Source: Escherichia coli (GTDB lineage Bacteria > Pseudomonadota > Gammaproteobacteria > Enterobacterales > Enterobacteriaceae). Taken from it: a stretch of DNA of 64,000 bases. Location: NCBI RefSeq assembly GCF_030384885.1, contig NZ_CP128613.1; one strand, 5' to 3'. Position 1 is the stretch's first letter. Each line of letters starts with the position of its first letter. Of the stretch, positions 7,689 through 61,405 are shown one piece after another. The notes under the pieces are model-generated. The model was given only the letters and a program-made list of their open reading frames with translations, searched no databases and was not told the DNA's origin. Made by a program: the position numbers and the translations under genes.

Positions 7689-7776
7689 CCTGATGCGCTA
7701 CGCTTATCAGGCCTACAAAATCTATCGCAACATATTGAATTTGCATGACATGTAGGCCGGATAAGGCGTTTAGACC
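7689..7776. repeat. REP/BIME element (two inverted REP units)
   Basis: gcctgatgcgctacgcttatcaggcctac ... gtaggccggataaggcgtttagaccgcatccggca; canonical E. coli REP sequence. Confidence 0.75.
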
Positions 7777-7805
7777 GCATCCGGCAAGAGTTAAATGCAT
7801 AATGA

Positions 7806-18675: not shown

Positions 18676-18766
18676 TAGCTTTCGTAGGCCTGATAAGACG
18701 CGACAGCGTCGCATCAGGCATTGTGCACGATTGCCGGATGCGGCGTGAACGCCTTATCCGGCCTGG
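18676..18766. repeat. REP/BIME element
   Basis: gtaggcctgataagacgcgacagcgtcgcatcaggc ... gccggatgcggcgtgaacgccttatccggcctg. Confidence 0.75.
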
Positions 18767-25977: not shown

Positions 25978-27327
25978 TTGGCGGGGTTTAACATCAAACA
26001 TTGGTTTGCAGATGGCGCGTTTCGCACCATTATTCGCAATAGCGCCTGGTTAGGCTCCAGTAATGTCGTGAGCGCTTTGCTGGGTCTGTTGGCGCTCTCG
26101 TGTGCCGGTAAAGGGATGACGCCCGCCATGTTTGGCGTACTGGTGATTGTGCAATCGTACGCCAAGTCGATCAGCGATTTTATTAAGTTTCAGACATGGC
26201 AGCTGGTGGTTCAGTACGGAACGCCAGCCTTGACCAATAATAATCCGCAGCAATTTCGCAATGTCGTCTCATTTTCCTTCTCGTTGGATATCGTCAGCGG
26301 CGCGGTGGCGATTGTCGGCGGCATTGCCTTACTCCCTTTTCTTTCCCATTCATTAGGTCTGGATGACCAAAGCTTTTGGCTGGCAGCGCTGTATTGCACG
26401 CTCATTCCTTCAATGGCTTCCTCCACACCGACCGGCATTCTGCGTGCGGTAGATCGCTTCGATTTGATTGCTGTACAGCAGGCGACGAAACCTTTTCTGC
26501 GCGCAGCGGGGAGCGTCGTAGCCTGGTATTTTGATTTTGGTTTTGCGGGTTTTGTTATTGCCTGGTACGCATCGAATCTGGTTGGCGGCACCATGTACTG
26601 GTGGTTTGCCGCGCGCGAATTACGCCGCAGAAATATCCATAACGCCTTCAAATTGAATCTGTTTGAGTCTGCCCGACACATTAAAGGCGCGTGGAGTTTT
26701 GTCTGGTCAACCAACATTGCCCACTCCATCTGGTCGGCACGTAACTCGTGCAGCACAGTGTTGGTGGGGATCGTGTTAGGACCCGCTGCCGCCGGGTTAT
26801 TTAAAATCGCCATGACATTCTTCGATGCCGCCGGAACGCCAGCGGGTTTACTGGGCAAAAGTTTTTACCCAGAGGTAATGCGTTTAGATCCGCGTACCAC
26901 CAGACCGTGGTTGTTAGGCGTGAAGTCCGGTTTACTGGCGGGCGGAATCGGTATTCTGGTGGCGCTCGCGGTGTTGATCGTCGGCAAGCCGCTCATTTCG
27001 CTGGTGTTTGGCGTTAAGTATCTCGAAGCGTATGACCTGATTCAGGTAATGCTTGGCGCAATTGTGATTTCGATGCTGGGCTTCCCACAGGAGTCATTGC
27101 TATTGATGGCGGGAAAACAGCGCGCTTTTCTCGTGGCGCAAACCATCGCCTCAATCGGCTACATCGTATTGCTGTTCATGTTCTGTCATCTGTTTGGCGT
27201 GCTGGGGGCTGCATTTGCTTACTTCGGTGGGCAATGTCTGGATGTGGTGCTCTCGTTAATTCCAACCTTAAAGGCATTTTTTCAGCGCCATTCCTTGCTT
27301 TATAACGCAGCCGGAGAGAAATCCTGA
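25978..27327 (+). CDS. yghQ: polytopic inner membrane protein, MOP/Wzx-type flippase-like; start codon uncertain (first ATG in frame at 26116)
   Basis: Track ORF 449 aa (non-ATG start at 25978); many hydrophobic helices; stop overlaps next gene start (TGATG). Confidence 0.8.
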   Translation: MAGFNIKHWFADGAFRTIIRNSAWLGSSNVVSALLGLLALSCAGKGMTPAMFGVLVIVQSYAKSISDFIKFQTWQLVVQYGTPALTNNNPQQFRNVVSFSFSLDIVSGAVAIVGGIALLPFLSHSLGLDDQSFWLAALYCTLIPSMASSTPTGILRAVDRFDLIAVQQATKPFLRAAGSVVAWYFDFGFAGFVIAWYASNLVGGTMYWWFAARELRRRNIHNAFKLNLFESARHIKGAWSFVWSTNIAHSIWSARNSCSTVLVGIVLGPAAAGLFKIAMTFFDAAGTPAGLLGKSFYPEVMRLDPRTTRPWLLGVKSGLLAGGIGILVALAVLIVGKPLISLVFGVKYLEAYDLIQVMLGAIVISMLGFPQESLLLMAGKQRAFLVAQTIASIGYIVLLFMFCHLFGVLGAAFAYFGGQCLDVVLSLIPTLKAFFQRHSLLYNAAGEKS

Positions 27328-28151
27328 TGATGAGAAAATATTTCCCGCTTGAGGCGAGCGAGCGTCTATTTATTGCAGTTGAAGAAGATGATGTCGTTGA
27401 TGCGCAGGTCAGTTTACCGCCGACTATCGCAACAGGTTGTACCACCGAAATCATTCATGATAATTACGCGTTATGCCTGCAATTCTGGCTGAATGGCGTT
27501 GATCGTCAGGAATTACTGCGTTTAATCCACAAACAAGCCAAAGGCGAGGGGCTTACGGCTGACGAGCGTAAACAGTTTAAATATATGCGGGCGCGTTATA
27601 AGCATCTGCGTTTCGCTCAGCGACTGTATCTGAAAAAACACAAGGCAGGATTTTTATTCGGCAAAACGACGGTATGTCTGGGCCATTTTCAGGATGGTTT
27701 CCGTAACGGTAAAAAAAATATTGTGTCGTATTACGGCAACCTGTTACGGATTTATTTAAGCTCTCCGGTCTGGTCGTTGGTGAACTATTCATTACGCCAT
27801 AGCCAGTTAGAAAGCGTAAGCGGTTTTATTGCCTATCGGCAAAAGCAAATGCATACCCTGAAAGAGATAATTGCCAAACCGCGACTAACCGGCAGGGAAT
27901 TTCATGATGTGCGAAAAATCATCAGCCAGCAGGTTTCTTATTACGACACCCTAAGATCGCTTGATCCTGAAAAAAAAGAAGCGTTACAGATTTCCCGCTT
28001 CCTCGCCGCCATTAATGGCCTGATGGGGGATAAACACGACGACATGGTGGCGGATGATATGGAAAACCGCCAGTCGTATGATGCACCGATGGCGCTGGAT
28101 AGCGATATTCGTCAGCGCTTAGAACTGCTGATTTCGCGTTTTCCGCTATAA
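27327..28151 (+). CDS. hypothetical soluble protein, no recognisable motif
   Basis: Track ORF 274 aa MMRKYFPLEASERLFIAVEEDD...; start overlaps yghQ stop; codon usage protein-like. Confidence 0.6.
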   Translation: MMRKYFPLEASERLFIAVEEDDVVDAQVSLPPTIATGCTTEIIHDNYALCLQFWLNGVDRQELLRLIHKQAKGEGLTADERKQFKYMRARYKHLRFAQRLYLKKHKAGFLFGKTTVCLGHFQDGFRNGKKNIVSYYGNLLRIYLSSPVWSLVNYSLRHSQLESVSGFIAYRQKQMHTLKEIIAKPRLTGREFHDVRKIISQQVSYYDTLRSLDPEKKEALQISRFLAAINGLMGDKHDDMVADDMENRQSYDAPMALDSDIRQRLELLISRFPL

Positions 28152-28159
28152 CCGGAGCA

Positions 28160-28723
28160 ATGATGTCATCTCGTTTGATTATTGCGCTGATTATCATGCT
28201 CTTAGCCCCGGGTGTGCAGGCACACAATTTCGTCACGGGTAAAACGGTTACCCCTGTTTATATCCAGGAAGGCGGCGAGCTGCTTCTGAATAGCGACGAC
28301 GAAATTCACTACCAAAAGTGGAACAGCACACAGCTGGCGGGAAAAGTCCGCATTATTCAGTATATCGCCGGGCGTAAGTCGGCGAAGAAAAAGAACTCAC
28401 TGTTAATTAAAGCGGTTGAAGCGGCAAACTTTCCGCAGGATCGTTTTCAGCCCACCACCATTGTGAACACCGATGATGCCATCTTTGGTACTGGCTATTT
28501 TGTCGTTGGCAAAATCGAAAAAAATAAACGCCGCTATCCGTGGGCGCAATTCGTTATTGACGGCAATGGACAGGGACGCGTTGCCTGGCGGTTGCCGGAG
28601 CAGAGTTCAACCATTCTGGTGCTGAATAAAGCCGGGCAAATTCAGTGGGCAAAGGACGGCAGCCTGACGCCGGAAGAGGTAGATCATGTCATTGCGCTGG
28701 CGCAGAAGCTGATCAATGAATAA
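28160..28723 (+). CDS. YtfJ-family periplasmic protein (paralog of core ytfJ), signal peptide MMSSRLIIALIIMLLAPGVQA
   Basis: Track ORF 187 aa; collinear similarity to remembered E. coli YtfJ (shared stretches VVQYIAGR.., TTIVNTDDAI, YPW.QFV.D, WAKDG.LTPEEV). Confidence 0.75.
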   Translation: MMSSRLIIALIIMLLAPGVQAHNFVTGKTVTPVYIQEGGELLLNSDDEIHYQKWNSTQLAGKVRIIQYIAGRKSAKKKNSLLIKAVEAANFPQDRFQPTTIVNTDDAIFGTGYFVVGKIEKNKRRYPWAQFVIDGNGQGRVAWRLPEQSSTILVLNKAGQIQWAKDGSLTPEEVDHVIALAQKLINE

Positions 28724-28752
28724 AAATTCAAAGGATTGAGGGCGTTAGTGAG

Positions 28753-29823
28753 ATGAAGCTGGTTGAACACTACATCATGCGTGGTACTCGCCGTCTGGTG
28801 CTGATTATCGTCGGTTTTCTGATCTTTATTTTCGCCAGCTACTCCGCACAGCGTTATCTGACCGAAGCGGCAAATGGGACATTAGCTCTTGATGTTGTGC
28901 TGGATATTGTTTTCTACAAGGTGCTGATTGCACTGGAGATGTTGTTACCTGTTGGACTGTATGTGTCAGTTGGCGTGACGCTAGGGCAGATGTATACCGA
29001 CTCGGAAATTACCGCTATTTCTGCGGCGGGGGGGAGTCCGGGACGCTTGTACAAAGCCGTTCTTTATCTGGCGATACCGCTAAGTATTTTTGTCACCCTT
29101 CTGTCGATGTATGGTCGTCCGTGGGCTTATGCGCAGATTTATCAACTGGAGCAACAGTCGCAGTCGGAGCTGGATGTTCGCCAGTTGCGGGCAAAGAAAT
29201 TTAACACTAACGATAACGGACGAATGATCCTTTCGCAGACGGTTGATCAGGATAATAATCGCCTGACTGACGTGCTGATTTATACTTCTACTGCCAATCG
29301 AACCCGTATTTTCCGCGCCCGTTCGGTTGATGTAGTTGACCCATCACCCGAGAAACCGACCGTTATGTTGCATAACGGGACCGCCTATCTTCTCGATCAT
29401 CAGGGACGTGACGACAACGAACAGATCTACCGTAATCTGCAATTGCATCTGAATCCGCTGGATCAAAGCCCTAACGTCAAACGCAAAGCAAAATCGGTCA
29501 CGGAGCTGGCGCGCTCCGCCTTTCCTGCCGATCATGCCGAACTGCAATGGCGACAAAGCCGTGGCCTGACAGCATTGTTGATGGCGCTGCTGGCCATTTC
29601 ATTAAGTCGGGTAAAACCGCGGCAAGGGCGATTTTCAACGTTATTGCCACTGACGTTGCTGTTTGTTGCCATTTTTTATGGCGGCGACGTCTGCCGTACG
29701 CTGGTGGCTAACGGCGCGATTCCCCTCATTCCTGGTTTGTGGTTAGTACCCGGACTCATGCTAATGGGCCTGCTGATGCTGGTCGCACGCGACTTCTCTT
29801 TGCTGCAGAAATTTTCCCGATGA
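28753..29823 (+). CDS. LptF-like permease (YjgP/YjgQ family), paralog of core lptF
   Basis: Track ORF 356 aa; N-terminal TM bundle, conserved YTDSEITAISAAG segment resembling LptF LYTESEITVMHACG, large periplasmic insert, C-terminal TMs. Confidence 0.8.
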   Translation: MKLVEHYIMRGTRRLVLIIVGFLIFIFASYSAQRYLTEAANGTLALDVVLDIVFYKVLIALEMLLPVGLYVSVGVTLGQMYTDSEITAISAAGGSPGRLYKAVLYLAIPLSIFVTLLSMYGRPWAYAQIYQLEQQSQSELDVRQLRAKKFNTNDNGRMILSQTVDQDNNRLTDVLIYTSTANRTRIFRARSVDVVDPSPEKPTVMLHNGTAYLLDHQGRDDNEQIYRNLQLHLNPLDQSPNVKRKAKSVTELARSAFPADHAELQWRQSRGLTALLMALLAISLSRVKPRQGRFSTLLPLTLLFVAIFYGGDVCRTLVANGAIPLIPGLWLVPGLMLMGLLMLVARDFSLLQKFSR

Positions 29824-30899
29824 ATGTTTTCAGTCGCTATTTAATCCGTCATCTCTTTCTCGGTTTTGCCGCCGCCGCAGGGCTATTGCTGCCGCTTTTT
29901 ACTACCTTCAACCTGATTAACGAACTGGATGATGTCAGCCCGGGTGGTTATCGCTGGACTCAGGCGGTGCTGGTGGTGCTGATGACCTTACCGCGCACAC
30001 TGGTCGAACTTTCGCCGTTTATCGCCTTATTGGGGGGGATTGTCGGCTTGGGGCAGTTATCGAAAAACAGTGAGCTTACCGCCATTCGCAGCACGGGGTT
30101 TTCTATCTTCCGTATTGCACTGGTGGCGCTGGTTGCCGGGATATTGTGGACTGTTTCATTAGGCGCGATAGATGAGTGGGTGGCGTCGCCATTGCAGCAA
30201 CAGGCGCTGCAAATCAAATCGACTGCCACTGCGTTGGGGGAGGACGATGACATTACCGGCAATATGCTGTGGGCCAGGCGTGGTAATGAATTTGTGACGG
30301 TGAAATCGCTGAACGAGCAGGGCCAGCCGGTGGGCGTGGAGATATTTCATTACCGCGACGATCTCTCGCTCGAATCCTACATTTATGCACGCAGTGCCAC
30401 CATTGAAGACGACAAAACGTGGATCCTGCATGGTGTGAATCATAAAAAATGGCTGAATGGCAAAGAAACGCTGGAAACATCTGATAATCTTGCCTGGCAA
30501 TCGGCCTTCACCAGTATGAATCTTGAAGAGTTATCGATGCCGGGAAATACTTTTTCTGTCCGTCAACTTAATCATTACATCCATTATTTGCAGGAAACCG
30601 GGCAACCCAGCAGCGAATACCGCCTTGCACTGTGGGAAAAACTGGGACAACCCATCTTGACCCTGGCGATGATTTTGCTGGCTGTGCCGTTTACCTTTAG
30701 TGCCCCGCGTTCGCCTGGGATGGGTAGCCGTCTCGCTGTAGGCGTCATCGTGGGCTTACTCACCTGGATCAGCTATCAAATCATGGTCAATCTGGGATTG
30801 CTATTTGCGTTGAGCGCACCTGTTACCGCGCTCGGTTTACCGATAGCGTTTATGCTGGTGGCGTTGAGCCTGGTGTATTGGTATGACAGTCAACATTAA
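29820..30899 (+). CDS. LptG-like permease (YjgP/YjgQ family), paralog of core lptG
   Basis: Track ORF 29739..30899; start trimmed to MNVFSRYLIRHLFLGF (359 aa), ATGA overlap with upstream permease; segment NSELTAIRSTGFS resembles LptG. Confidence 0.8.
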   Translation: MNVFSRYLIRHLFLGFAAAAGLLLPLFTTFNLINELDDVSPGGYRWTQAVLVVLMTLPRTLVELSPFIALLGGIVGLGQLSKNSELTAIRSTGFSIFRIALVALVAGILWTVSLGAIDEWVASPLQQQALQIKSTATALGEDDDITGNMLWARRGNEFVTVKSLNEQGQPVGVEIFHYRDDLSLESYIYARSATIEDDKTWILHGVNHKKWLNGKETLETSDNLAWQSAFTSMNLEELSMPGNTFSVRQLNHYIHYLQETGQPSSEYRLALWEKLGQPILTLAMILLAVPFTFSAPRSPGMGSRLAVGVIVGLLTWISYQIMVNLGLLFALSAPVTALGLPIAFMLVALSLVYWYDSQH

Positions 30900-30933
30900 A
30901 CCCGCCGTGGCGCAGCACCACAGCGGGCTCACA

Positions 30934-32106
30934 TTACTGCTTCAGAGTAGCAAATGCCTGAATGATGGCATCGATTTGCTCACGAGTGTGGGCAGCGTTT
31001 ACGCTACAGCGCAGCAGCGTGATGCCTGCAGGCGCGGCAGGTGGCAGGATAAGATTCACATAAACGCCCAGCGAAATAAGCTCGCGCCAGATGCGTAAAC
31101 CTTCCTCTTTCGAACCGATTATCACTGGCACTACCGGGCTAATATGTGAACTTAACTCGTAACCCAGTTTTTGCAGACCGTCATACAGATGGTTGGCGTT
31201 ATCCATCAGCTTTTGCCGCAACTCTGGTTGTGAGGCAATGGTTCTTAACGACGAGCGCACGGTCGCAATGCAGGACGGAGAAGGAGAGGCGGTAAAAATA
31301 TACGGGCGGCTGCCGTAGCGCAGCACTTCCATCGCTTCCGAACCGACAGCAAAACCGCCAATCGAGGCCAGACTTTTACTGAAAGTACCAACGATAATAT
31401 CCACATCATCTTCAACGCCAACGGCTTCAGCCAGTCCGCGCCCCGTTGCGCCTAACACGCCAAACGAATGCGCTTCATCGACAATCAAATAACCACCGAG
31501 ACGACGTTTGATATCAACAATTTCCGCCAGCGGCGCAATGTCACCGAGCATACTGTAGATGCCTTCAACGATGATAATCGCCTCTTTTGCCCGTTCACCG
31601 AGGCGAACCATGCGCCGTTCCAGATCTTTAGCATCGTTATGGCGGAAACGAATAATTTCCGCTCCACCGAGAGAACAGGCGTCATAAATACTGGCGTGGC
31701 TGTCGGCATCCAGTAACACTACGGCGTTATGGTCGGCAAGTGCGCTGATGACACCTAAATTAGCGGTATAACCGGTTGAAAAAACGATAGCGGTAGGGCG
31801 ATTGAAAAACTCGGCAATTTCTTTCTCTAACGCCAGATGTGGCGCATAGCTGCCATTAGCCATACGAGAACCGGTAGTGCCGGTGCCTTGGGCCGCTAAC
31901 GCTGCCTGACCTTCGGCGATGGCATCATGATTGAAGGTTAAACCGAGATAATTATTGGTCCCGGCCAGGATCACGTTTTTATCGCCGATCCGGCCTTCGG
32001 TGGCGGAATACACTTCATCAATACAGGTACCAAACGGCGTTAACCCGTTGTCACTAAATTGCAGTCGCTCGCCAGCAAGGCGCGCATATTTATCGTATAG
32101 CCCCAT
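30934..32106 (-). CDS. PLP-dependent alpha-oxoamine synthase, serine palmitoyltransferase-like (third AOS paralog besides bioF and kbl)
   Basis: Track ORF 390 aa; PLP-lysine motif IVGTFSKSLASIGG, DEAHSFG motif, glycine-rich GTGTTGSR segment; TAATG overlap with upstream ACP. Confidence 0.85.
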   Translation of the reverse strand: MGLYDKYARLAGERLQFSDNGLTPFGTCIDEVYSATEGRIGDKNVILAGTNNYLGLTFNHDAIAEGQAALAAQGTGTTGSRMANGSYAPHLALEKEIAEFFNRPTAIVFSTGYTANLGVISALADHNAVVLLDADSHASIYDACSLGGAEIIRFRHNDAKDLERRMVRLGERAKEAIIIVEGIYSMLGDIAPLAEIVDIKRRLGGYLIVDEAHSFGVLGATGRGLAEAVGVEDDVDIIVGTFSKSLASIGGFAVGSEAMEVLRYGSRPYIFTASPSPSCIATVRSSLRTIASQPELRQKLMDNANHLYDGLQKLGYELSSHISPVVPVIIGSKEEGLRIWRELISLGVYVNLILPPAAPAGITLLRCSVNAAHTREQIDAIIQAFATLKQ

Positions 32107-32354
32107 TATTTATTCTCCAGCCATGGAAGTAGAGTTTCCATTAATTGCGCAGGGGTTTTGACATCCAGCAGAATATTAATAGGAATGGAAATATCGAATC
32201 TGTCTTCCAGCATCATTAAGAGATCCATCACTTTGATCGACTCCAGGCCAAGATCGTTGACGAGATCGCTGTCGGGCTTAATTTCCACACCGTTTTCGAC
32301 CAAATCCTGTAAACAGGAAAGGATGTAATCCATTACTATTTCACGATTTACCAT
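32106..32354 (-). CDS. acyl carrier protein (dedicated), candidate phosphopantetheine site in DLGLESIKVMDL
   Basis: Track ORF 82 aa; acidic four-helix ACP-like sequence; position between reductase and AOS. Confidence 0.7.
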   Translation of the reverse strand: MVNREIVMDYILSCLQDLVENGVEIKPDSDLVNDLGLESIKVMDLLMMLEDRFDISIPINILLDVKTPAQLMETLLPWLENK

Positions 32355-32385
32355 AGAAACGTTAACACACCTTTAAACAAGACAA

Positions 32386-33300
32386 TCAAAATAGCCCGTT
32401 GCGTAATGCGTGTTCCAGGCTAATCCCGGGAAACCAATTAATATCTTCAGAAATACGGTTATTACTTGCTGACCAGTCGGTGTGGGTTAATTCACGGATT
32501 TTCGAGCGGGTCAGCATAGGTTCTTTACCTGCCAGGCGACTCAACGCGGTACTGATATCCGCAAGGCAGGTGAGTACCGACAGAGGAATACCAACCATTC
32601 GAACGGAACCGCAACGGGCGTCGGCGGCAAGTTGCTGTACGCGTTGCCAGTCATAGCCGCCGGCGACGCCATCGCATAATTCATAGGTTTGCGTCTGTAC
32701 AGTTTCGGCGCTTAACCACTGCCCCACGGCTTGCGCGAAATCGGTGACGTGCAGGAAAGAGAGCTGTGTATCTGGCGCACCAAGTCGTGGCAGCAGGCCG
32801 CGCAGCATCCAGTCAAACAGCGGTTTTAACTCTTTATCGCCGGGACCATACACGGCTGTCGGGCGAAAAATGCCCAGCGTAATTTCGTCAGCCATTGCGG
32901 TCAGTCGTTGTTCGGCGACGTGTTTGGAATTTGCGTACCAGGAGAGTTCGGGATGGCGCGCCGCCAGCGAAGAGATAAACAGAAAACGTTGGCAAAAGCC
33001 GCTCTCTTTTGCCGCTTGCATCAGGCGCAGGCTGCCGTCAACGTTACAGCGGGTAAAAATCTCTTCTTTGTGTCCGCGCACTTGCCCGGCGCAATGGACC
33101 ACCGCGCTGGCTCCGGCAACCAGTTCGCTAAGCGAATGTGTATCTTCCAGCGAACCGCGCACCCAGATGAGATTATCATTGACGTGAGCGCGGGCAGTAC
33201 GCGTCAATGCGCGAACGTGAAAGCCGCGGGCGAGCAGGTTATCGATAATATATTTACCGATAAACCCGGTAGCGCCCGTCACCGCGACAGTTTGATTCAT
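32386..33300 (-). CDS. NAD(P)-dependent reductase of the epimerase/dehydratase SDR type (candidate 3-keto-sphinganine/ceramide reductase)
   Basis: Track ORF 304 aa; N-terminal VAVTGATGFIGKY Rossmann motif, YANSK (YxxxK); ATGA overlap with upstream FAAL. Confidence 0.8.
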   Translation of the reverse strand: MNQTVAVTGATGFIGKYIIDNLLARGFHVRALTRTARAHVNDNLIWVRGSLEDTHSLSELVAGASAVVHCAGQVRGHKEEIFTRCNVDGSLRLMQAAKESGFCQRFLFISSLAARHPELSWYANSKHVAEQRLTAMADEITLGIFRPTAVYGPGDKELKPLFDWMLRGLLPRLGAPDTQLSFLHVTDFAQAVGQWLSAETVQTQTYELCDGVAGGYDWQRVQQLAADARCGSVRMVGIPLSVLTCLADISTALSRLAGKEPMLTRSKIRELTHTDWSASNNRISEDINWFPGISLEHALRNGLF

Positions 33301-35015
33301 GCCATTGATTCCTGCACATGAAGGCTTGCAGCATAACGTTTTTTCGCTTCCGCACGGGCAGGCTTGCCGGAGGACGTTCGGGGAATACTGTGGGGCGGCA
33401 ACAGATCGATAGCCGCTGTTACGCCAAATTCGCTTTGGATCCGTGCTGCCAGTGCGTGGATAAGCTGCCCACGACGTTCTTCGTCGCTGATCCTACACTG
33501 GATCTGCAAAATGATTTTTTCCTGGGCGGTAACAAAAGCAATCGCATCGCCAGAATGAATTTCCGGTTCCTGTTCCGCAATATATTCAATATCCTGCGGC
33601 CAGATATTACGGCCACGAATAATAATCAGATCTTTAATGCGCCCGGTGACATACAGATAACCGTCCAGCAGATAACCGAGGTCGCCGGTATCTAACCAGC
33701 CCGTCGCGGCAATCTCGTCTTGCGAAACCTGGTCGCCAAAGTAACCGCTCATCAGGCTGGGGCCGGAGATGCAAATATGGCCTACCACACGTTCCGCGAC
33801 TGGCATACCTGCTTCATTGCGGATTTCAATGCCATGTTCCGGCAACGCTTTACCGCAGTTGACGAAAGTCGATACGGCGCGTGTTTCAGCACCCGGCGTG
33901 ACGGCTTTGCCCTGATATTCAAGAATGTCGCGATCCACTTCGTTAACCACAACCCCGGAGGCTTCATCAGAGAAGCTGACAGCCAGCGCATTTTCTGCCA
34001 GTCCGTAGCACGGCATGAAAGTTTTATCGTCAAAGTTAACCTGACGGAAACATTCAGCGAATTGATGGAGTTGTTCTGCGGAGATCGGCTCAGCACCAAT
34101 ACCAGCAACGCGCCAGCAGGAAAGATCCAGTTCAGCGAGATCTTTTTCATTCACGCGGCGCTGGCACAATTCATAGCCAAACGGCGGCGCAACGGAAACG
34201 GTGCCGCGATTTTTACTGATCAATTTAAGCCATTGCAGAGGACGCATGGCAAAATCCTGAGTGCGCAAATAATCTACTGAGAGCTGCGTGGCGACGGGGG
34301 TCAGGAGAAAGCCGACCAGTCCCATATCATGGTAGAAAGGCAGCCAGGAGACGCAGCGGTCGCCAGGGCGTAATTTAATGCCATCGTGGCTTATAGCACG
34401 TAGATTAGCCATCACTTCGCGATGGGTGATAATGACGCCACGGGGAAAACGGGTGCTGCCGGAGGTGTACTGGAGGTAGGCGATATCGTTCGGAACTGGA
34501 CGCTGGAGTACAACATCGGCTTCCGGTAATGCCTTAAACCAGGCGTGGCTTAAAACATGTAATTCGGGGTTGTTATGCGTAGCAGCATTGACCAGTGGCA
34601 ACCACTCATCACCAGTGATAATGGCTGCGGGCTGGCAACTTGCCAGTAGACCCTGCAGTTTGGCGCTCCAGGAATCCCGCTGACCGACGCCCATTGGAAT
34701 TGCCAACGGGACGGCGACTAAGCCGGCATACTGGCAGGCAAAAAAAGCCTCTACAAACCCGCTACTCGTTTCGGCAATCAGCGCCACGCGATCGCCTTTT
34801 TTCAGATTCAGTGATAACAACCGCTTCGCACCAGCTTCGGCACGCGCTTTTAACGTCTGATATTCCAGTTGATCTTCAAGTTGGCAACGTCTGTCATAAA
34901 AATTCATTCCGGCGCTACTCAGAGCGGCGTAGTCCAAAGCATCAACCAGCGTTGGAAAATCGGCATAGCGCATAGGTAGGGAATGCGTAAAGATGTTATT
35001 AGACATATACACCAC
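33297..35015 (-). CDS. fatty acyl-AMP ligase / acyl-ACP synthetase (adenylate-forming); start at GTG 35015 or ATG ~35006
   Basis: Track ORF 572 aa; AMP-binding signature YTSGSTRFPRGV, second motif TGDLGY; first gene of the minus-strand operon. Confidence 0.85.
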   Translation of the reverse strand: MVYMSNNIFTHSLPMRYADFPTLVDALDYAALSSAGMNFYDRRCQLEDQLEYQTLKARAEAGAKRLLSLNLKKGDRVALIAETSSGFVEAFFACQYAGLVAVPLAIPMGVGQRDSWSAKLQGLLASCQPAAIITGDEWLPLVNAATHNNPELHVLSHAWFKALPEADVVLQRPVPNDIAYLQYTSGSTRFPRGVIITHREVMANLRAISHDGIKLRPGDRCVSWLPFYHDMGLVGFLLTPVATQLSVDYLRTQDFAMRPLQWLKLISKNRGTVSVAPPFGYELCQRRVNEKDLAELDLSCWRVAGIGAEPISAEQLHQFAECFRQVNFDDKTFMPCYGLAENALAVSFSDEASGVVVNEVDRDILEYQGKAVTPGAETRAVSTFVNCGKALPEHGIEIRNEAGMPVAERVVGHICISGPSLMSGYFGDQVSQDEIAATGWLDTGDLGYLLDGYLYVTGRIKDLIIIRGRNIWPQDIEYIAEQEPEIHSGDAIAFVTAQEKIILQIQCRISDEERRGQLIHALAARIQSEFGVTAAIDLLPPHSIPRTSSGKPARAEAKKRYAASLHVQESMA

Positions 35016-35377
35016 GAAAAAAATTGGATATCAGAAATAAAATGACAATAATGCGGTGGATTATATAGGCATAAAAGATAAATGAGATAGTATTTTCATC
35101 GGTGCGATATTGAACATTGATTTAAATAATAGGTTTGGCTTTGTTGTTTTTATTGTGAATGATATTTAATTTATGAATATATTAAGAAGAAGCCTTGTTT
35201 GGTTGCCTTAAATCGACAAAAGGCATTGAGGCGCTTCTGTGTAGTCTCTGACCTTATCTTAATTATTAATAAATACTATTTATTCTTTGTTTGTATTCAT
35301 TGGGTTGATTATTAAGATGCCGTTCGTTGCTGTTGCAATCTGTTTGTCACCGTTAATTATTTGTTATCCACAGAGAT
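35016..35377. promoter_or_regulatory. AT-rich divergent promoter region between the FAAL operon (-) and yghO (+)
   Basis: ~360 bp strongly AT-rich with A/T tracts; flanked by divergent start codons; typical of H-NS-bound, horizontally acquired regulatory regions. Confidence 0.5.
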
Positions 35378-36520
35378 ATGGAATGCGATCTGCTGATGAT
35401 TAAAATTGAAAAAGTAATTAATAAAAATGACATTAAGGCATTTATCGCTTTTCCGTCATCACTTTATCCCGATGATCCAAACTGGATACCCCCTTTGTTC
35501 ATTGAACGCAGCGAGCATTTGTCGGCGAAGAATCCGGGGACGGACCATATTATCTGGCAGGCGTGGGTAGCAAAAAAAGCGGGGCAGATAGTCGGGCGGA
35601 TTACCGCGCAAATCGATACCTTGCACCGCGAGCGTTACGGTGACGATACCGGTCATTTTGGCATGATTGACGCCATTGATGATCCGCAGGTTTTTGCCGC
35701 TTTGTTTGGCGCAGCGGAAGCATGGTTGAAGTTACAAGGTGCCAGTATGATCAGCGGGCCTTTCAGCCTGAATATCAATCAGGAAAGCGGATTACTGATT
35801 GAAGGTTTCGACACTCCGCCCTGTGCGATGATGCCGCACGGTAAACCGTGGTATGCCGCGCATATTGAACAATTGGGTTATCACAAAGGTATTGATTTAC
35901 TGGCGTGGTGGATGCAACGAACCGATCTCACTTTCTCTCCGGCGCTAAAAAAACTGATGGATCAGGTACGCAAAAAGGTGACCATTCGTTGCATCAATCG
36001 TCAGCGGTTTGCTGAAGAGATGCAGATCCTGCGTGAGATTTTCAACTCTGGCTGGCAGCACAACTGGGGATTTGTGCCGTTTACCGAACATGAATTCGCT
36101 ACCATGGGCGATCAACTAAAGTATCTGGTACCGGACGATATGATCTACGTCGCTGAGATTGGTTCTGCACCCTGCGCGTTTATTGTCGGCTTGCCGAACA
36201 TCAACGAGGCGATTGCCGATCTGAACGGATCGCTCTTTCCCTTCGGCTGGGCAAAATTGCTGTGGCGCTTAAAAGTCAGCGGTGTGCGAACTGCGCGAGT
36301 GCCGCTGATGGGCGTGCGTGACGAGTATCAGTTCAGCCGCATCGGCCCGGTGATTGCGCTGTTATTGATTGAAGCCTTACGCGATCCGTTTGCTCGCCGG
36401 AAGATCGATGCGCTGGAAATGTCATGGATCCTCGAAACCAATACAGGCATGAATAACATGCTGGAACGCATTGGAGCGGAGCCGTACAAGCGTTACCGAT
36501 TGTATGAAAAGCAGATTTAA
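35378..36520 (+). CDS. yghO: YghO, full-length; candidate N-acyltransferase (GNAT/FemAB-like fold suspected, not verified)
   Basis: Track ORF 380 aa MECDLLMIKIEKVINKNDIKAF...; position between the lipid operon and glcC. Confidence 0.75.
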   Translation: MECDLLMIKIEKVINKNDIKAFIAFPSSLYPDDPNWIPPLFIERSEHLSAKNPGTDHIIWQAWVAKKAGQIVGRITAQIDTLHRERYGDDTGHFGMIDAIDDPQVFAALFGAAEAWLKLQGASMISGPFSLNINQESGLLIEGFDTPPCAMMPHGKPWYAAHIEQLGYHKGIDLLAWWMQRTDLTFSPALKKLMDQVRKKVTIRCINRQRFAEEMQILREIFNSGWQHNWGFVPFTEHEFATMGDQLKYLVPDDMIYVAEIGSAPCAFIVGLPNINEAIADLNGSLFPFGWAKLLWRLKVSGVRTARVPLMGVRDEYQFSRIGPVIALLLIEALRDPFARRKIDALEMSWILETNTGMNNMLERIGAEPYKRYRLYEKQI

Positions 36521-36658
36521 TACCAGATCCCATTAAGCGCACGGACGGTCATTCGGGAGAGTGTATAGATGAACAGATTTAACATCAGATCCTATTAAGC
36601 GCAGGGGCGGTCCCCTCGCCCCTCAGGGAGAGGGTTAGGGTGAGGGGGAAAACTCGGC

Positions 36659-37429
36659 TCACATTCCCCCCTTGTTCATCTCCAGTGGCACCGCCGAGCG
36701 AATCAAATGGTGGCCTTCCAGTTCGATATCGTGGAGATTCTTTTTCACGGTCCGCACATGATCACGTGCGGCGCGCTGGGCGACGTGCGGCAGTCGCTGC
36801 AACACCGCGTTGTAGATCCGCGCATGTTGGCGATCGATCTGCTTTTTTTGCTGTGGTCGATGGTAGAGATTATTTACGCTGGCAAACACTGAATTAAACA
36901 TCAGATCGGTCAATGATTGCAGCGTAAAAACTAGCACCTGATTGTGGGAAGCCTGACAAATGGCAAGATGGAAAGCATGATCCAGCTGCGCGTGTTCGAT
37001 CAGCGAAATTTCTTTGTTGTTTTCACTGGCGGCGAGCATTTTTTCATAACAGCGGGTTATCAAAACAAAATCCGCCTGGGTTCCCAGCGTAGCTGCCAAC
37101 CTTGCCGATTCGCCTTCCAGCAATGCGCGAACGTCGAGTAGATCGTATAGCGTTCGCGGCTGTGTACTGAACAGATGGATCAGCGGGCTGGTGTCCTGCA
37201 CGCGATTAAGGCGTGCGACACGAGAATCGCGCCCCTGTGCTGTTTCAATAATCCCGCGTCCGCGCAGCACGGTCAGCCCTTCACGCAGTGCGGAACGCGA
37301 GAAGCCGAGCTTTTCACACAGTCGACGCTCCGAAGGAAGCGGCTGACCGACCTTCAGCACGCCGTCGATAATTAACCGTTCGATACTCTCTGCAACCACT
37401 TCGCAAATAGGGCGACGTTCATCTTTCAT
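36659..37429 (-). CDS. glcC: GntR-family activator of the glycolate operon
   Basis: Track ORF 36659..37489; start trimmed to MKDERRPICEVVAESIERLIIDG. Confidence 0.93.
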   Translation of the reverse strand: MKDERRPICEVVAESIERLIIDGVLKVGQPLPSERRLCEKLGFSRSALREGLTVLRGRGIIETAQGRDSRVARLNRVQDTSPLIHLFSTQPRTLYDLLDVRALLEGESARLAATLGTQADFVLITRCYEKMLAASENNKEISLIEHAQLDHAFHLAICQASHNQVLVFTLQSLTDLMFNSVFASVNNLYHRPQQKKQIDRQHARIYNAVLQRLPHVAQRAARDHVRTVKKNLHDIELEGHHLIRSAVPLEMNKGGM

Positions 37430-37679
37430 TCCCGGACCTCGTGCACAGGTAGGACCAATTTTTCTGTTCTTGATTCGCAAAACACGCACATCACGTAAGT
37501 GATTATGTTACATCAATTTAACATTAAGTTAACCAAGGCAAGGTCACAGAGCTGGAAAAAAAATGGTCTGACCGGTAGCTAAAGAGATAGACGAAAACGA
37601 AAAGCCCGCTTAATAACTGTTCACAGAAGCAGCGCGCAAAAATCAGCTGCCACACAACACAACAAAGCGAACCCTACTC
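37430..37679. promoter_or_regulatory. glcC / glcDEFGBA divergent promoter region
   Basis: Intergenic between divergent glcC and glcD; known regulated promoter pair in E. coli. Confidence 0.5.
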
Positions 37680-39179
37680 ATGAGCATCTTGTACGAAGAG
37701 CGTCTTGATGGCGCTTTACCCGATGTCGACCGTACATCGGTACTGATGGCACTGCGTGAGCATGTCCCTGGACTGGAGATCCTGCATACCGATGAGGAGA
37801 TCATTCCTTACGAGTGTGACGGGTTGAGCGCGTATCGTACGCGTCCATTACTGGTTGTTCTGCCTAAGCAGATGGAACAGGTGACGGCGATTCTCGCTGT
37901 CTGCCACCGTTTGCATGTACCGGTAGTGACCCGTGGCGCAGGCACCGGACTTTCTGGCGGTGCGCTGCCGCTGGAAAAAGGTGTGTTGTTGGTGATGGCG
38001 CGCTTTAAAGAAATCCTCGACATTAACCCCGTTGGTCGCCGTGCGCGTGTGCAGCCGGGCGTGCGTAACCTGGCGATCTCCCAGGCTGTTGCGTCGCATA
38101 ATCTCTATTACGCGCCGGATCCTTCCTCACAAATCGCCTGTTCCATTGGCGGCAACGTGGCGGAAAACGCCGGGGGCGTCCACTGTCTGAAATATGGTCT
38201 GACCGTACATAATCTGCTGAAAATTGAAGTGCAAACGCTGGATGGCGAGACACTAACGCTGGGATCGGACGCGCTGGATTCGCCCGGTTTTGACCTGCTG
38301 GCGCTGTTCACCGGATCGGAAGGCATGCTCGGCGTGACCACCGAAGTGACGGTAAAACTGCTGCCGAAGCCCCCTGTGGCACGAGTTCTGTTAGCCAGCT
38401 TTGACTCAGTAGAAAAAGCCGGACTTGCGGTTGGCGACATCATCGCTAATGGCATTATCCCCGGCGGGCTGGAGATGATGGATAACCTGTCGATCCGCGC
38501 GGCGGAAGATTTTATTCATGCCGGTTATCCCGTCGATGCCGAAGCAATTTTATTATGTGAGTTGGACGGCGTGGAGTCTGATGTACAGGAAGACTGCGAG
38601 CGAGTTAACGACATCTTACTGAAAGCGGGCGCGACTGACGTCCGTCTGGCGCAGGATGAAGCGGAGCGCGTGCGTTTCTGGGCCGGTCGCAAAAATGCTT
38701 TTCCAGCGGTAGGACGTATTTCCCCGGATTACTACTGCATGGACGGCACCATCCCGCGCCGCGCGTTGCCTGGCGTACTGGAAGGCATTGCCCGTTTATC
38801 GCAGCAATATGATTTACGCGTTGCCAACGTCTTTCATGCCGGAGACGGCAATATGCACCCGTTAATCCTTTTCGATGCCAACGAACCCGGTGAATTCGCC
38901 CGTGCGGAAGAATTGGGTGGGAAGATCCTTGAACTCTGTGTTGAAGTAGGCGGCAGTATCAGTGGGGAACATGGCATCGGGCGCGAAAAAATCAATCAGA
39001 TGTGCGCCCAGTTCAACAGTGATGAAATTACTACCTTTCATGCAGTCAAGGTGGCGTTTGATCCTGATGGTTTGCTGAACCCTGGGAAAAACATCCCCAC
39101 ACTGCACCGCTGCGCTGAATTTGGTGCCATGCACGTGCATCACGGTCATTTACCTTTCCCTGAACTGGAGCGTTTCTGA
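37680..39179 (+). CDS. glcD: glycolate oxidase FAD-linked subunit
   Basis: Track ORF 499 aa MSILYEERLDGALPDVDRTSVLMALREHVPGLEILH... Confidence 0.96.
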   Translation: MSILYEERLDGALPDVDRTSVLMALREHVPGLEILHTDEEIIPYECDGLSAYRTRPLLVVLPKQMEQVTAILAVCHRLHVPVVTRGAGTGLSGGALPLEKGVLLVMARFKEILDINPVGRRARVQPGVRNLAISQAVASHNLYYAPDPSSQIACSIGGNVAENAGGVHCLKYGLTVHNLLKIEVQTLDGETLTLGSDALDSPGFDLLALFTGSEGMLGVTTEVTVKLLPKPPVARVLLASFDSVEKAGLAVGDIIANGIIPGGLEMMDNLSIRAAEDFIHAGYPVDAEAILLCELDGVESDVQEDCERVNDILLKAGATDVRLAQDEAERVRFWAGRKNAFPAVGRISPDYYCMDGTIPRRALPGVLEGIARLSQQYDLRVANVFHAGDGNMHPLILFDANEPGEFARAEELGGKILELCVEVGGSISGEHGIGREKINQMCAQFNSDEITTFHAVKVAFDPDGLLNPGKNIPTLHRCAEFGAMHVHHGHLPFPELERF

Positions 39180-46599: not shown

Positions 46600-47592
46600 A
46601 TGAATAAGAAATTTAAATATAAAAAATCGCTTTTAGCGGCTATTTTAAGCGCAACCTTATTAACCGGTTGTGATGGCGGTGGTTCAGGATCGTCCTCCGA
46701 TACGCCGTCTGTAGATTCTGGAGCAGGGACTTTGCCGGAAGTGAAACCCGATCCAATACCAACCCCGGAACCGACACCTGAGCCGACGCCGGACCCAGAA
46801 CCTACACCAGACCCGACACCCGATCCAGAGCCGACACCAGAACCGGAGCCAGAACCTGTTCCTACGAAAACGGGGTATCTGACCCTGGGCGGAAGCCAGC
46901 GGGTAACTGGTGCTACCTGTAATGGTGAATCCAGCGACGGCTTTACCTTTACGCCAGGCAATACCGTGAGTTGTGTGGTGGGCAGTACGACCATTGCAAC
47001 ATTCAACACCCAGTCAGAGACTGCGCGTAGCCTGCGTGCGGTTGACAAAGTGTCGTTTAGCCTTGAGGACGCGCAGGAGCTGGCGGATTCTGCAAATAAG
47101 AAAACCAACGCCATCTCTCTGGTGACGTCCAGCGACAGTTGCCCCGCAGATGCAGAACAGCTTTGTCTTACTTTCTCGTCAGTGGTTGATCGCGCGCGTT
47201 TTGAAAAACTGTATAAGCAAATTGATCTGGCAACAAACGATTTCAGCAAGCTGGTCAATGAAGAGGTGGAAAACAATGCTGCGACTGATAAAGCGCCGTC
47301 CACCCATACCTCAACGGTAGTGCCAGTCACGACAGAGGGAACAAAACCGGATCTGAACGCGTCCTTCGTGTCGGCTAACGCGGAACAGTTTTATCAGTAT
47401 CAACCAACTGAAATCATTCTTTCCGAAGGCCATCTGGTGGATAGCCTGGGGAACGGTGTTGCTGGCGTAGACTACTACACCAATTCAGGCCGTGGCGTAA
47501 CTGACGAAAACGGTAAATTCTCCTTTAGCTGGGGCGAAACCATCTCCTTTGGTATCGATACCTTTGAACTGGGCTCAGTACGCGGCAATAAG
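46600..47592 (+). pseudogene. yghJ: sslE/yghJ lipoprotein mucinase, 5' fragment only (~330 of ~1500 codons), then out-of-context tail to stop at 47664
   Basis: Track ORF 46582..47664; MNKKFKYKKSLLAAILSATLLTGCDGGG lipobox, PEPT-repeat linker, collinear with SslE N-terminus up to ...ISFGIDTFELGSVRGNK, after which similarity stops. Confidence 0.8.
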
Positions 47593-47603
47593 ATCCGCAG
47601 AAA

Positions 47604-47861
47604 ATTTTTAACTATATCCAGCTTACGCCTGTGCGTAAGGAGGGAATTGTCGGTTATGCAGTGAAGCCGGGGGCAGATCGTTCTCTGTTCGATGCCAGCG
47701 GTTTCAGGGAAGGCGATATCGCCATTGCGCTCAATCAGCAGGATTTCACTGATCCACGAGCAATGATTGCTCTGATGCGGCAGTTACCTTCAATGGATTC
47801 CATTCAACTTACGGTTTTACGCAAGGGTGCGCGCTACGACATTTCCATCGCGCTGCGCTAA
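47604..47861 (+). pseudogene. gspC: gspC (T2SS-beta) 3' fragment encoding only the C-terminal PDZ-like region
   Basis: Frame continuing into track ORF 47631..47861 reads ...NYIQLTPVRKEGIVGYAVKPGADRSLFDASGFREGDIAIALNQQDFTDPRAMIALMRQLPSMDSIQLTVLRKGARYDISIALR; no 5' part present. Confidence 0.7.
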
Positions 47862-47890
47862 CCGCATTTAATCCAGGAGAATCATTCATC

Positions 47891-48807
47891 GTGTTTTGGC
47901 GTGATATTACGTTGTCGGCCTGGCGTAAGAAGACAACTGGCCTCAAAACAAAAAAGCGTTTACTGCCGCTGGTGCTGGCAGCGGCATTATGCAGTTCACC
48001 GGTCTGGGCGGAAGAAGCCACTTTCACCGCTAATTTTAAAGATACCGACCTGAAATCGTTCATCGAAACCGTCGGCGCTAACCTTAATAAAACCATCATT
48101 ATGGGGCCGGGCGTACAGGGGAAAGTGAGTATTCGTACCATGACCCCACTCAATGAACGCCAGTATTACCAGCTATTCCTTAACCTGCTGGAAGCACAGG
48201 GGTATGCCGTCGTACCGATGGAAAACGACGTGCTGAAGGTGGTGAAATCCAGCGCCGCGAAAGTCGAGCCGCTGCCGCTGGTCGGTGAAGGCAGCGACAA
48301 CTACGCGGGCGATGAAATGGTCACCAAAGTAGTGCCGGTACGTAATGTGTCGGTCCGCGAACTGGCACCGATTTTGCGCCAGATGATCGACAGCGCAGGC
48401 TCAGGCAACGTTGTTAATTACGATCCCTCCAACGTAATTATGCTCACCGGACGCGCCTCCGTCGTAGAGCGCCTGGCGGTCTGATGGACGATCAGGCGGG
48501 AGAAAGCGTGGCGAAAGTGCCGCTGCTGGGCGATATCCCGTTGATTGGTAACCTGTTTAAATCGACGGCGGATAAAAAAGAAAAACGTAACCTGATGGTG
48601 TTTATCCGCCCGACCATTCTGCGTGATGGTATGGCGGCAGACGGCGTGTCGCAGCGCAAATATAACTATATGCGCGCCGAACAGATCTATCGCGATGAGC
48701 AAGGCTTAAGCCTGATGCCGCACACCGCGCAGCCGATATTGCCTGCGCAAAATCAGGCTCTACCGCCGGAAGTTCGTGCGTTCCTTAATGCCGGGAGAAC
48801 GCGTTAA
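47891..48807 (+). pseudogene. gspD: gspD secretin with large internal deletion/frameshift (N0-domain fragment 47891..48484 plus C-terminal fragment 48484..48807)
   Basis: Track ORFs of 197 aa (signal peptide + N0 domain, ends ...VNYDPSNVIMLTGRASVVERLAV) and 107 aa (secretin C-terminal motif VPLLGDIPLIGNLF) in different frames; intact GspD is ~650 aa. Confidence 0.8.
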
Positions 48808-50300
48808 TGGTGCCTGTAGCACAGGAAACCACTGCTAACACCGTGCGTCTGCCCTACAGTTTCAGCCGTCGGTTTAGCCTGGTGGCATGGTGCGAAGCGT
48901 CGCTGGAGATCCTCCATGTGCATCCGTTGTCGCTCTCTGTTTTGCAGGAGCTGCAACGGGGGCTGAACGCGCCCTTTACGCTGCGGCAAATCGACGAAGC
49001 CGAATTTGAACAGCGGCTGAATGCGGTCTGGCAACGGGACTCTTCCGAGGCCCGCCAGCTGATGGAAGATCTCGGTTCTGCTGAGGACTTTTTTACCCTC
49101 GCGGAAGAACTGCCGGAAACGGAAGATCTGCTGGAAAGTGACGATGATGCGCCGATCATCAAACTGATCAACGCCATGCTGGCAGAGGCGATTAAAGAAG
49201 GCGCTTCGGATATCCACATCGAGACGTTTGAAAAGAGTCTGGTGATCCGTTTTCGCGTTGACGGCACATTACATGAAATGCTGCGTCCGGGGCGCAAACT
49301 GGCCTCGCTGCTGGTATCGCGTATTAAGGTGATGGCACGGCTGGATATCGCCGAAAAACGCGTACCGCAGGATGGGCGCATTGCGCTGCTGCTGGGCGGT
49401 CGGGCGATTGACGTGCGTGTCTCCACCATGCCTTCCGCCTGGGGCGAGCGCGTGGTGCTGCGACTGCTGGACAAAAACCAGGCCCGCCTGACGCTGGAAC
49501 GTCTGGGGTTGAGCCATGAACTGACCGCGCAGTTGCGCCAGCTACTGCACAAACCGCACGGCATCTTTCTGGTGACGGGGCCGACAGGTTCCGGCAAAAG
49601 CACCACGCTGTACGCCGGATTGCAGGAGCTGAACAACCACTCGCGCAACATTCTCACGGTTGAAGACCCCATCGAATACATGATTGAAGGGATCGGTCAG
49701 ACACAGGTTAACACCCGCGTCGGCATGACCTTCGCCCGTGGCCTGCGCGCGATTTTGCGTCAGGACCCGGATGTGGTGATGGTCGGTGAAATCCGCGATA
49801 CCGAAACCGCAGAAATCGCCGTCCAGGCGTCATTGACCGGACACCTGGTACTTTCCACGCTGCATACCAACACGGCGGTGGGGGCGATCACGCGTTTGCA
49901 GGATATGGGCGTTGAGCCTTTCCTGCTCTCTTCCAGCCTGACGGGCGTGATGGCGCAGCGACTTGTTCGCACACTGTGCACCGACTGCCGCCAGCCCGCG
50001 CCTGCCACTGATGAAGAAAAACGCCTGCTGGGAATTACCGATGTGCGTACCGTCACGCTGTACCATCCGCAGGGCTGCCCCGCCTGTAATCACAAAGGTT
50101 TTCGCGGGCGTACTGCCATCCATGAGCTGATCGTGGTAGACGCCACATTGCGTGATTTGATTCACCGTCAGGCCGGGGAACTGGAGCTGGAACGTTATGT
50201 CCGGCAACACTCTGCGGGTATCCGCAGCAACGGCATTGAGAAAGTGCTTGCCGGAGAAACCTCTCTCGATGAAGTGCTGCGGGTAACGATGGAGGCGTAA
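48807..50300 (+). CDS. gspE: type II secretion ATPase GspE (reading frame intact)
   Basis: Track ORF 497 aa; Walker [10 protein letters not shown], tetracysteine CTDC...CPAC motif. Confidence 0.9.
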
Positions 50301-50995
50301 TGGCACTGTTTTACTATCAGGCGTTACAGCGTAATGGTCGCAAAACCAAAGGCATGATTGAGGCGGATTCCGCGCGTCATGCCCGCCAGTTGTTGCGCGG
50401 TAAAGAGCTTATCCCCGTACACATTGAAGCCCGGATGAATGCTTCGTCAGGGGGAATGTTGCAGCGTCGGCGACACGCACATCGTCGTGTGGCGGCGGCA
50501 GATCTGGCGCTGTTCACTCGCCAACTGGCAACGCTGGTGCAGGCAGCAATGCCGCTGGAAACCTGCTTACAGGCGGTCAGTGAGCAAAGTGAAAAACTGC
50601 ATGTAAAAAGCCTCGGAATGGCGCTACGCAGCCGGATTCAGGAAGGTTACACCCTGTCGGACAGCCTGCGCGAACATCCCCGCGTCTTTGACTCCCTGTT
50701 TTGTTCGATGGTGGCTGCCGGAGAAAAATCCGGGCATCTCGACGTGGTGCTCAATCGCCTGGCGGATTACACCGAACAGCGACAGCGCCTGAAATCACGC
50801 CTGCTGCAGGCCATGCTCTATCCGCTGGTACTGCTGGTGGTGGCAACGGGCGTGGTCACTATTTTGCTGACGGCGGTGGTGCCGAAAATTATCGAACAGT
50901 TTGATCATCTCGGACACGCGCTGCCTGCCTCCACCCGCGCTCTTATCGCTATGAGCGACGCGTTGCAGACCAGCGGCGTTTACTGGCTGACCGGT
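50300..50995 (+). pseudogene. gspF: gspF inner-membrane platform protein, 3'-truncated (~230 of ~400 codons); ORF continues into unrelated sequence to 51088
   Basis: Track ORF 50300..51088 262 aa; GspF-like N-terminal cytoplasmic domain and first TM; last ~30 residues non-GspF. Confidence 0.75.
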
Positions 50996-51239
50996 GCCAT
51001 GTATCACGGGCCTGTGCATCCATTAAGGAAAGCATCCCTGAACGTTGCATCAGGTCACGCCAGATTTCGCGATCGAGATTGCGTGTGATGGCTTTCATTG
51101 CGGTTTCCGGTTTCTCCATCAGCCAGCAGCCGCAGCGAAAATCCTGTTTCATGGCCCAGTCCGGGGCGGCTTTACCGCCAATACTTTCTGTCATTGCTGA
51201 TATTTCAGCCAGTTGCCGGATAAGTGTGTCGTGTAGTGG

Positions 51240-52539
<1,300 letters not shown>

Positions 52540-52620
52540 TGATGTGGGGGGAATCTGGTTGAGTTCGGTAGAATTGATTTGGAGGCAGAACGCTTAAATT
52601 GTGGCGTTCTGAAACGAAAA

Positions 52621-52644
52621 ACGGACCTCCGTGGAGGTCCGTTG
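52621..52644 (-). terminator. pheV terminator hairpin
   Basis: aacggacctccgtggaggtccgtt perfect inverted repeat just 3' of the tRNA, followed on the minus strand by ttttcgtttc. Confidence 0.6.
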
Positions 52645-52654
52645 ATATGAATTT

Positions 52655-61296: not shown

Positions 61297-61405
<109 letters not shown>

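Follow-up and report, generated by a model that had tools for sequence, protein, structure and literature searches.

A BoxC element and a decayed partial tandem copy make up the yghO-glcC spacer of an Escherichia coli lineage

Results

The yghO-glcC boundary

The window, by which we mean the whole stretch of DNA analysed here, is 64,000 nt of Escherichia coli sequence (NZ_CP128613.1). Two convergent genes, yghO and glcC, meet in it, and their stop codons are separated by 138 nt.

35378-36520, + strand: yghO CDS, 380 aa (ORF list and RefSeq annotation of the identical record NZ_CP027579.1)
36659-37429, - strand: glcC CDS, 256 aa (annotations and translations)

The YghO protein ends in ...RLYEKQI* with its TAA stop at 36518-36520, and the TGA stop of glcC is found at 36659-36661 (TCA on the + strand). 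A 401-nt query that covers the spacer showed no difference between the window and E. coli 2013C-4282 (NZ_CP027579.1; 100% identity).

The identity of the window to K-12 is 94-97% over about 45 kb of collinear DNA (span 4858-59449). Its yghO, glcC and glcD genes are 94-96% identical to those of K-12 and EC958, and 92-95% identical to those of other Escherichia species. These values suggest that the genome represents a deep-branching lineage that has been labelled E. coli. Some larger differences to K-12 were also observed. A segment of about 8.3 kb at 27050-35417, with several long ORFs and a fatty acyl-AMP ligase gene (33297-35015, - strand), has no counterpart in K-12, which carries an IS5 and a truncated yghQ there. 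For another segment of about 5 kb (47593-52645), blastn returned no match above 300 nt to the sslE/gsp region, which fills the corresponding K-12 interval; the segment has either diverged or been replaced. A 12/18-nt periodic repeat rich in CCN/GAN codons (46743-46856), apparently encoding a proline-rich linker, is located where the window aligns to K-12 sslE.

The G-rich element

The G-rich sequence in the spacer is a member of the repeat family that was named BoxC, later PIT (potential intrastrand triplex) and then TMECO (Holder et al., Nucleic Acids Res 2015, PMC4666352). The intact copy consists of a core with a flank on each side.

36597-36612, + strand: BoxC left flank of the intact copy, AAGCGCAGGGGCGGTC (comparison with 12 other BoxC copies)
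36613-36648, + strand: intact BoxC/PIT/TMECO core, type A (regex of the published consensus; PMC4666352)
36647-36673, + strand: BoxC right flank, GGAAAACTCGGCTCACATTCCCCCCTT (similar flanks at cstA/ybdD, phnP and lldD; hairpin predictions)

The core reads CCCTCGCCC-CTCA-GGGAGAGGG-TTA-GGGTGAGGG-GG, and the published core consensus, CCCTCNCCC-N3-6-GGGNGAGGG-N3-GGGNGAGGG (PMC4666352), was matched exactly by a regex at 36613-36646. The second loop is TTA in type A elements and CCG in type B (PMC4666352); it is TTA at 36635-37 in the window, and the core is therefore of type A. Its G-rich strand is the sense strand of yghO, and 36626-36646 fits the pattern (G3N3)3G3, which is unique within the window. 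A preliminary description, made from the sequence alone, had called this element a G-rich palindrome overlapping the glcC stop. The string is present as quoted there, but its dyad symmetry is only partial, with 10-nt arms (36612-36621 and 36638-36647) that are 90% complementary, and it ends at 36648, short of the stop codon; only the right flank extends over the end of glcC. Within that flank, GGGGGAA and TTCCCCC can pair according to the hairpin prediction.

A complete BoxC unit is about 56 bp, and in the window BoxC-homologous DNA extends over approximately 36586-36673. The left flank pattern ..GCGC.CGGAC(G/A)GTC and the right flank pattern G(G)AA(A/C)A..GC.C are common to 12 other copies, with flank-sharing copies at zntA/tusA, pstA, phnP, tauD/hemB, adk, yihR/S, ybcF/purK, cstA/ybdD, gabT/P, gcvP and alx. 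The copies at phnP, lldD/trmL and cstA/ybdD also share a sequence similar to CACATTCCC farther to the right. At the yjdP/phnP copy of K-12, a right flank of the CACATTCCC type abuts the phnP stop (136-162 of that locus), and BoxC right flanks beside gene ends may recur.

The core aligns with other BoxC copies, and the element is multicopy in the genome and not single-copy. A blastn search with 36562-36682 found 72,837 places in 5,407 of the 5,426 complete E. coli genomes, 72,806 of them chromosomal and 31 on plasmids. The number of copies per genome has a median of 15 and reaches 27, and the window's own genome has 8. The position of the core is intergenic, while the right flank overlaps the end of glcC and the first of the two tandem units described below overlaps the end of yghO. 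The locus is variable, with three length alleles and decayed variants.

In alleles that carry the element, the 3' end of glcC, consisting of the last four codons and the stop (AAG GGG GGA ATG TGA), lies within the right flank and makes up its last 15 nt (CTCACATTCCCCCCTT on the + strand). GlcC consequently ends in ...EMNKGGM* (256 aa) with the element, as compared to ...EMNLS* (254 aa) in the element-free K-12 form. The end of the YghO protein is the same with the element.

The tandem units

To the left of the intact core lies a direct repeat, which is part of two longer units, S1 and S2.

36512-36550, + strand: ungapped direct repeat, copy 1, 39 nt (repeat search)
36574-36612, + strand: ungapped direct repeat, copy 2, 39 nt (repeat search; shuffle and window-tile controls)
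36501-36561, + strand: tandem unit S1 (gapped alignment to S2, 51/60)
36562-36632, + strand: tandem unit S2 (repeat search, gapped alignment)

The two 39-nt copies are identical at 34 of 39 positions (87%) and contain the 30-nt strings on which an imperfect tandem repeat had been proposed. Their start-to-start spacing is 62 nt, and not about 67 nt as was first given. In 300 shuffles of 36400-36760 (361 nt), with offsets up to 150, the best 39-nt direct match was 24/39, and the runner-up among 177 tiles of the real window, a coding proline-rich repeat, had 28/39. By both controls the direct repeat is well beyond chance, and the repeat proposed in the preliminary description stands. Tandem Repeats Finder did not detect the 62-nt repeat, as the copies are too few and too diverged, and returned only a 6-nt AGGGTG periodicity inside the core.

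The 39-nt repeat is the core of S1 and S2, which match at 51 of 60 aligned positions in a gapped alignment, with a further 11 nt of indels (excess in S2). S1 starts in the tail of yghO (TGTATGAAAAGCAGATTTAA); within the unit a spacer comes next, then a BoxC left flank at 36535-36550 (AAGCGCACGGACGGTC), and last a decayed core, ATTC-GGGAGAG (36551-36561), without the C-rich block. S2 starts with the decayed, non-coding counterpart of the yghO tail (TGTATAGATGAACAGATTTAA), and continues through the spacer and the BoxC left flank into the intact core, of which it holds the first half. Both units end in GGGAGAG, and their junction, GGGAGAG followed by TGTAT, falls inside the BoxC core. The left flank that is typical of the family, CGGACGGTC, is kept in S1, and the S1 flank AAGCGCACGGACGGTC is nearer to the usual BoxC left flank than the S2 flank AAGCGCAGGGGCGGTC is. 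The earlier view of a duplicated yghO 3' end was correct in that the last six codons and the TAA stop are included in S1, but it was incomplete; the duplicated unit also holds the left half of BoxC, and the first copy is therefore a decayed BoxC.

We also considered TGTATAGATGAA as a decayed third block of BoxC. This gave 6/12 matches and was rejected, the alignment to the yghO tail being better (17/21) and continuing into CAGATTTAA. The S1/S2 junction also creates a 9-codon ORF, MNRFNIRSY*, at 36569-36598 on the + strand, with a Shine-Dalgarno-like GGGAGAG (36555-36561) 7 nt 5' of the ATG; this ORF is probably accidental.

Alleles of the locus

The locus was matched in 4,546 of 5,426 complete E. 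coli genomes. In most E. coli, including the K-12 derivatives, the element is absent and the two stop codons lie 6 nt apart. Coverage of the query was 80% or more in 186 genomes, and in 185 of these, among them ST131 EC958 and SMS-3-5, there is one BoxC and a spacer of 75-76 nt. In EC958, yghO is annotated as a frameshifted pseudogene (1999-3142 of that locus). The two-unit form with its 138-nt spacer was found only in the window's own genome among the 5,426. In the same genomes the junction segment 36536-36590 had no other match, and a less diverged intermediate with two copies was not found. A search of the E. coli genomes for a donor of the 62-nt segment at another locus found none, and scanning metagenomes for a two-copy variant of any kind gave 0 matches.

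A single occurrence in 5,426 complete genomes could be taken to mean that the extra 62 nt are a sequencing or assembly error in one genome, a reading to which we give practically no probability. It is refuted by other NCBI assemblies with the same spacer: all four draft assemblies that were read have the 138-nt form, and the three that were compared base by base are identical to the window. Moreover, an identical YghO is indexed in 871 blocks of the assembly collection, and an identical GlcC in 938.

The nearest complete genome, RMDEC465, has a yghO that is 99.7% identical to that of the window, and a single-copy spacer. Its alignment to the window defines one further feature.

36542-36603, + strand: 62 nt absent from the closest single-copy allele, RMDEC465 (allele alignment)

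The boundaries of this segment can slide within the shared ATTAAGCGCA, and the RMDEC465 spacer is the left part of S1 joined to the right part of S2 at the same shared sequence. Judged from its sequence, the RMDEC465 spacer is what a deletion between the repeats would be expected to produce.

In a scan with one genome per species, yghO adjoined glcC only in Escherichia. In Escherichia sp. E1V33 there is a single intact BoxC, and the left part, CCTATTAAGCGCAGGGG, is of the S2 type; the BoxC of E. whittamii is degenerate, and the left part there, CCCATTAAGCGCACGGA, is of the S1 type. The latter element (approximately 3644-3740 of its locus), an example of how a core decays, shows a 12-nt loss between two GAGGG repeats, and its C-rich block has acquired substitutions. 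The site is empty and of K-12 length in Escherichia sp. MOD1-EC7003 and in the divergent 'E. coli' SCPM-O-B-8794. Filled and empty sites thus occur in several Escherichia species, and the presence/absence polymorphism crosses species. Three indels, of about 3, 60 and 16 nt, set the filled alleles apart from the empty ones, and no target-site duplication accompanies them. The outgroups give no polarity for insertion or deletion, since both states are found in several Escherichia species and the two genes are not adjacent outside the genus.

The left parts of the two units resemble different alleles. S1 shares the states CCCA, CAC and GGA with the E. whittamii allele, and S2 shares CCTA, CAG and GGG with Escherichia sp. 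E1V33 and other E. coli.

Discussion

The yghO-glcC spacer of the window strain is nearly all BoxC-family DNA, consisting of one intact copy and, directly upstream of it, a decayed and presumably older partial one. The main published result on BoxC is a raised local variability among strains (PMC4666352), and the arrangement at yghO-glcC is an ordinary, lineage-specific rearrangement at a kind of repeat site that is already reported as unstable. The partial duplication is a lineage-specific variant of this instability. The preliminary description had offered two possibilities, a repeat-mediated terminator or a small repetitive element that shapes the gene boundary. The second one was borne out; the element is BoxC, and strains differ in both its presence and its copy structure.

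It appears likely that the locus as a whole can be explained by a spacer built from BoxC, a tandem duplication with decay, and a secondary deletion in RMDEC465. A BoxC unit would first have been present at the yghO-glcC junction, and a segment of about 70 nt, from the last codons of yghO to the BoxC middle block GGGAGAG, would then have been duplicated in tandem, with a breakpoint inside the structure-prone core. The most likely mechanism would be replication slippage or unequal recombination at the structure-prone repeat. The upstream copy may later have lost its C-rich block, and the yghO tail in the downstream copy would have decayed because it was no longer coding. The single-copy allele of RMDEC465 would be the result of a secondary 62-nt deletion between the two repeats. 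It probably was not the precursor, since in that case S1 and S2 would both require several additional changes.

S1 and S2 differ by about 15% in addition to the indels. This is too large for a recent clonal duplication, and implies either an old event or units that come from different alleles. The duplication would then be about as old as the splits between the Escherichia species, or the units would be two diverged alleles joined by unequal recombination. That S1 and S2 share states with two allele classes is not predicted by a simple divergence in situ. It is conceivable, though on balance we find it somewhat unlikely, that the two-unit allele arose by unequal or illegitimate recombination between two diverged single-BoxC alleles, one of the ancestral type seen in E. 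whittamii (CCCATTAAGCGCACGGA, degenerate core) and one of the E1V33 or E. coli B2 type (CCTATTAAGCGCAGGGG, intact core). Such an event could follow the import of foreign Escherichia DNA, and the divergence of the window lineage from K-12 makes an exchange between lineages plausible. The diagnostic states of a different allele class in each unit argue for it, and so does the order of the single-copy alleles, which in our reading runs from E. whittamii over RMDEC465 and E1V33 to B2 without homoplasy. Against it, three substitutions and an indel separate the S2 copy of the yghO tail, TGTATAGATGAA, from all yghO ends seen (TGTATGAAAAG), so that the join must still be old, or else mutagenic. Furthermore, a single-copy allele of the S1 type with an ATTC-GGGAGAG core was not found in E. 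coli. We regard it as improbable that the two-unit form is ancestral to every Escherichia yghO-glcC allele with a BoxC, in which case the single-copy alleles would be independent 62-nt deletions with different crossover points between S1 and S2. The E. whittamii, RMDEC465, E1V33 and B2 types would then each have collapsed independently. If it were so, the locus would be a natural record of BoxC copying adjacent host sequence by template switching and then collapsing, and could be used to study how a repeat family that has no enzyme spreads and reshapes the ends of genes.

Whichever way the two BoxC copies came about, it is very improbable that they and the direct repeat serve as a terminator, or as a structure that protects the 3' ends of the convergent yghO and glcC transcripts. 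The element does extend a convergent spacer of 6 nt to 75-138 nt, a GC-rich hairpin of -25.1 kcal/mol (52 nt) is predicted for its core, and its G-rich strand, which is the yghO sense strand, fits a pattern of the G-quadruplex type. With near-identical oligonucleotides the BoxC G-rich strand forms an intrastrand triplex in vitro, NMR of the full oligonucleotide favoured the triplex over a quadruplex, and a stable triplex in vivo is unsupported (PMC4666352). However, a scan for terminators and promoters found nothing in the spacer, and a stem followed by a T-run is absent from both strands. The sole terminator-like site in 36300-36900 is located inside yghO (36348-36361). When both strands were folded, as the preliminary description had proposed, the whole spacer did not exceed its shuffles in stability (z = -0.40 for the + strand, -0.03 for the - strand), and the z of the core hairpin was only -1.1. 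Most E. coli dispense with the element, and in earlier experiments BoxC had neither promoter nor terminator activity and no effect on RNA polymerase (summarised in PMC4666352). The terminator part of the earlier proposal is not supported. It is even less probable that BoxC is a miniature transposable element and the direct repeats its target-site duplication. That filled and empty forms of this one site occur in several Escherichia species would fit, but the repeats are 39-60 nt long and bracket just 23 nt with no element in between, a geometry that contradicts a target-site duplication, and the three indels between filled and empty alleles leave no clean one. The published survey also found no association of BoxC with transposons, phages or plasmids (PMC4666352). 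We infer that the arrangement is selectively neutral and without a dedicated function; neither a duplication nor a recombination of alleles calls for one.

The significance of these observations is small beyond annotation. A repeat family that most pipelines do not annotate, with no Rfam match and no RefSeq feature, explains the entire yghO-glcC spacer. The locus also illustrates that the end of a regulator gene, here the last codons and the stop of glcC, can come from a BoxC. It is one worked example of the already reported instability of BoxC sites, with an empty, a single and a partially duplicated form, and a secondary deletion. The 62-nt length difference can be used as a marker of the window's E. 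coli lineage.

Comparison with known repeat families

The REP/BIME elements are, like the element described here, short, GC-rich and partly palindromic dispersed repeats between convergent genes, but their sequence is unrelated to it. The REP consensus had no match in 36500-36680, as compared to three elsewhere in the window (7752-7785, 18733-18766 and 61361-61394). An Rfam search of 35000-38000 with permissive E-values gave only chance-level matches to eukaryotic families (E > 4).

Inverted BoxC pairs, in which a type A and a type B element are combined, are found at five loci in K-12. The linker after the type A core in the window, GGAAAACTCGGCTCAC, resembles those at gabT/gabP, gcvP and alx, and it is likewise followed by a C-rich segment in inverted orientation. 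In the window this segment is only a short stub, ATTCCCCCC, without a full inverted type B core, and the second copy is direct and upstream instead of inverted.

BoxC is a dispersed chromosomal repeat of enterobacteria for which we know of no enzyme or function. The likeness of the window element to this family is close. The core match is exact, including the type A TTA loop, the flanks are conserved, and the core has the single-mismatch ('mm') architecture of the commonest K-12 subtype. Dispersed chromosomal copies and polymorphism among strains at the locus are shared as well, and the core lies between genes. K-12 has 23 BoxC copies, all of them intergenic (PMC4666352), and the yghO-glcC site, which is empty in K-12, is outside these 23. 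The locus was not found in the accessible part of the supplement of that study, where a mismatch in the B2/F allele would escape the strict consensus. The window element also differs in that the first loop of the core (CTCA) is one base shorter, and in that the stop and some coding sequence of glcC come from its right flank. Finally, it is accompanied by a partial tandem copy, which has decayed and takes in the 3' end of the adjacent gene.
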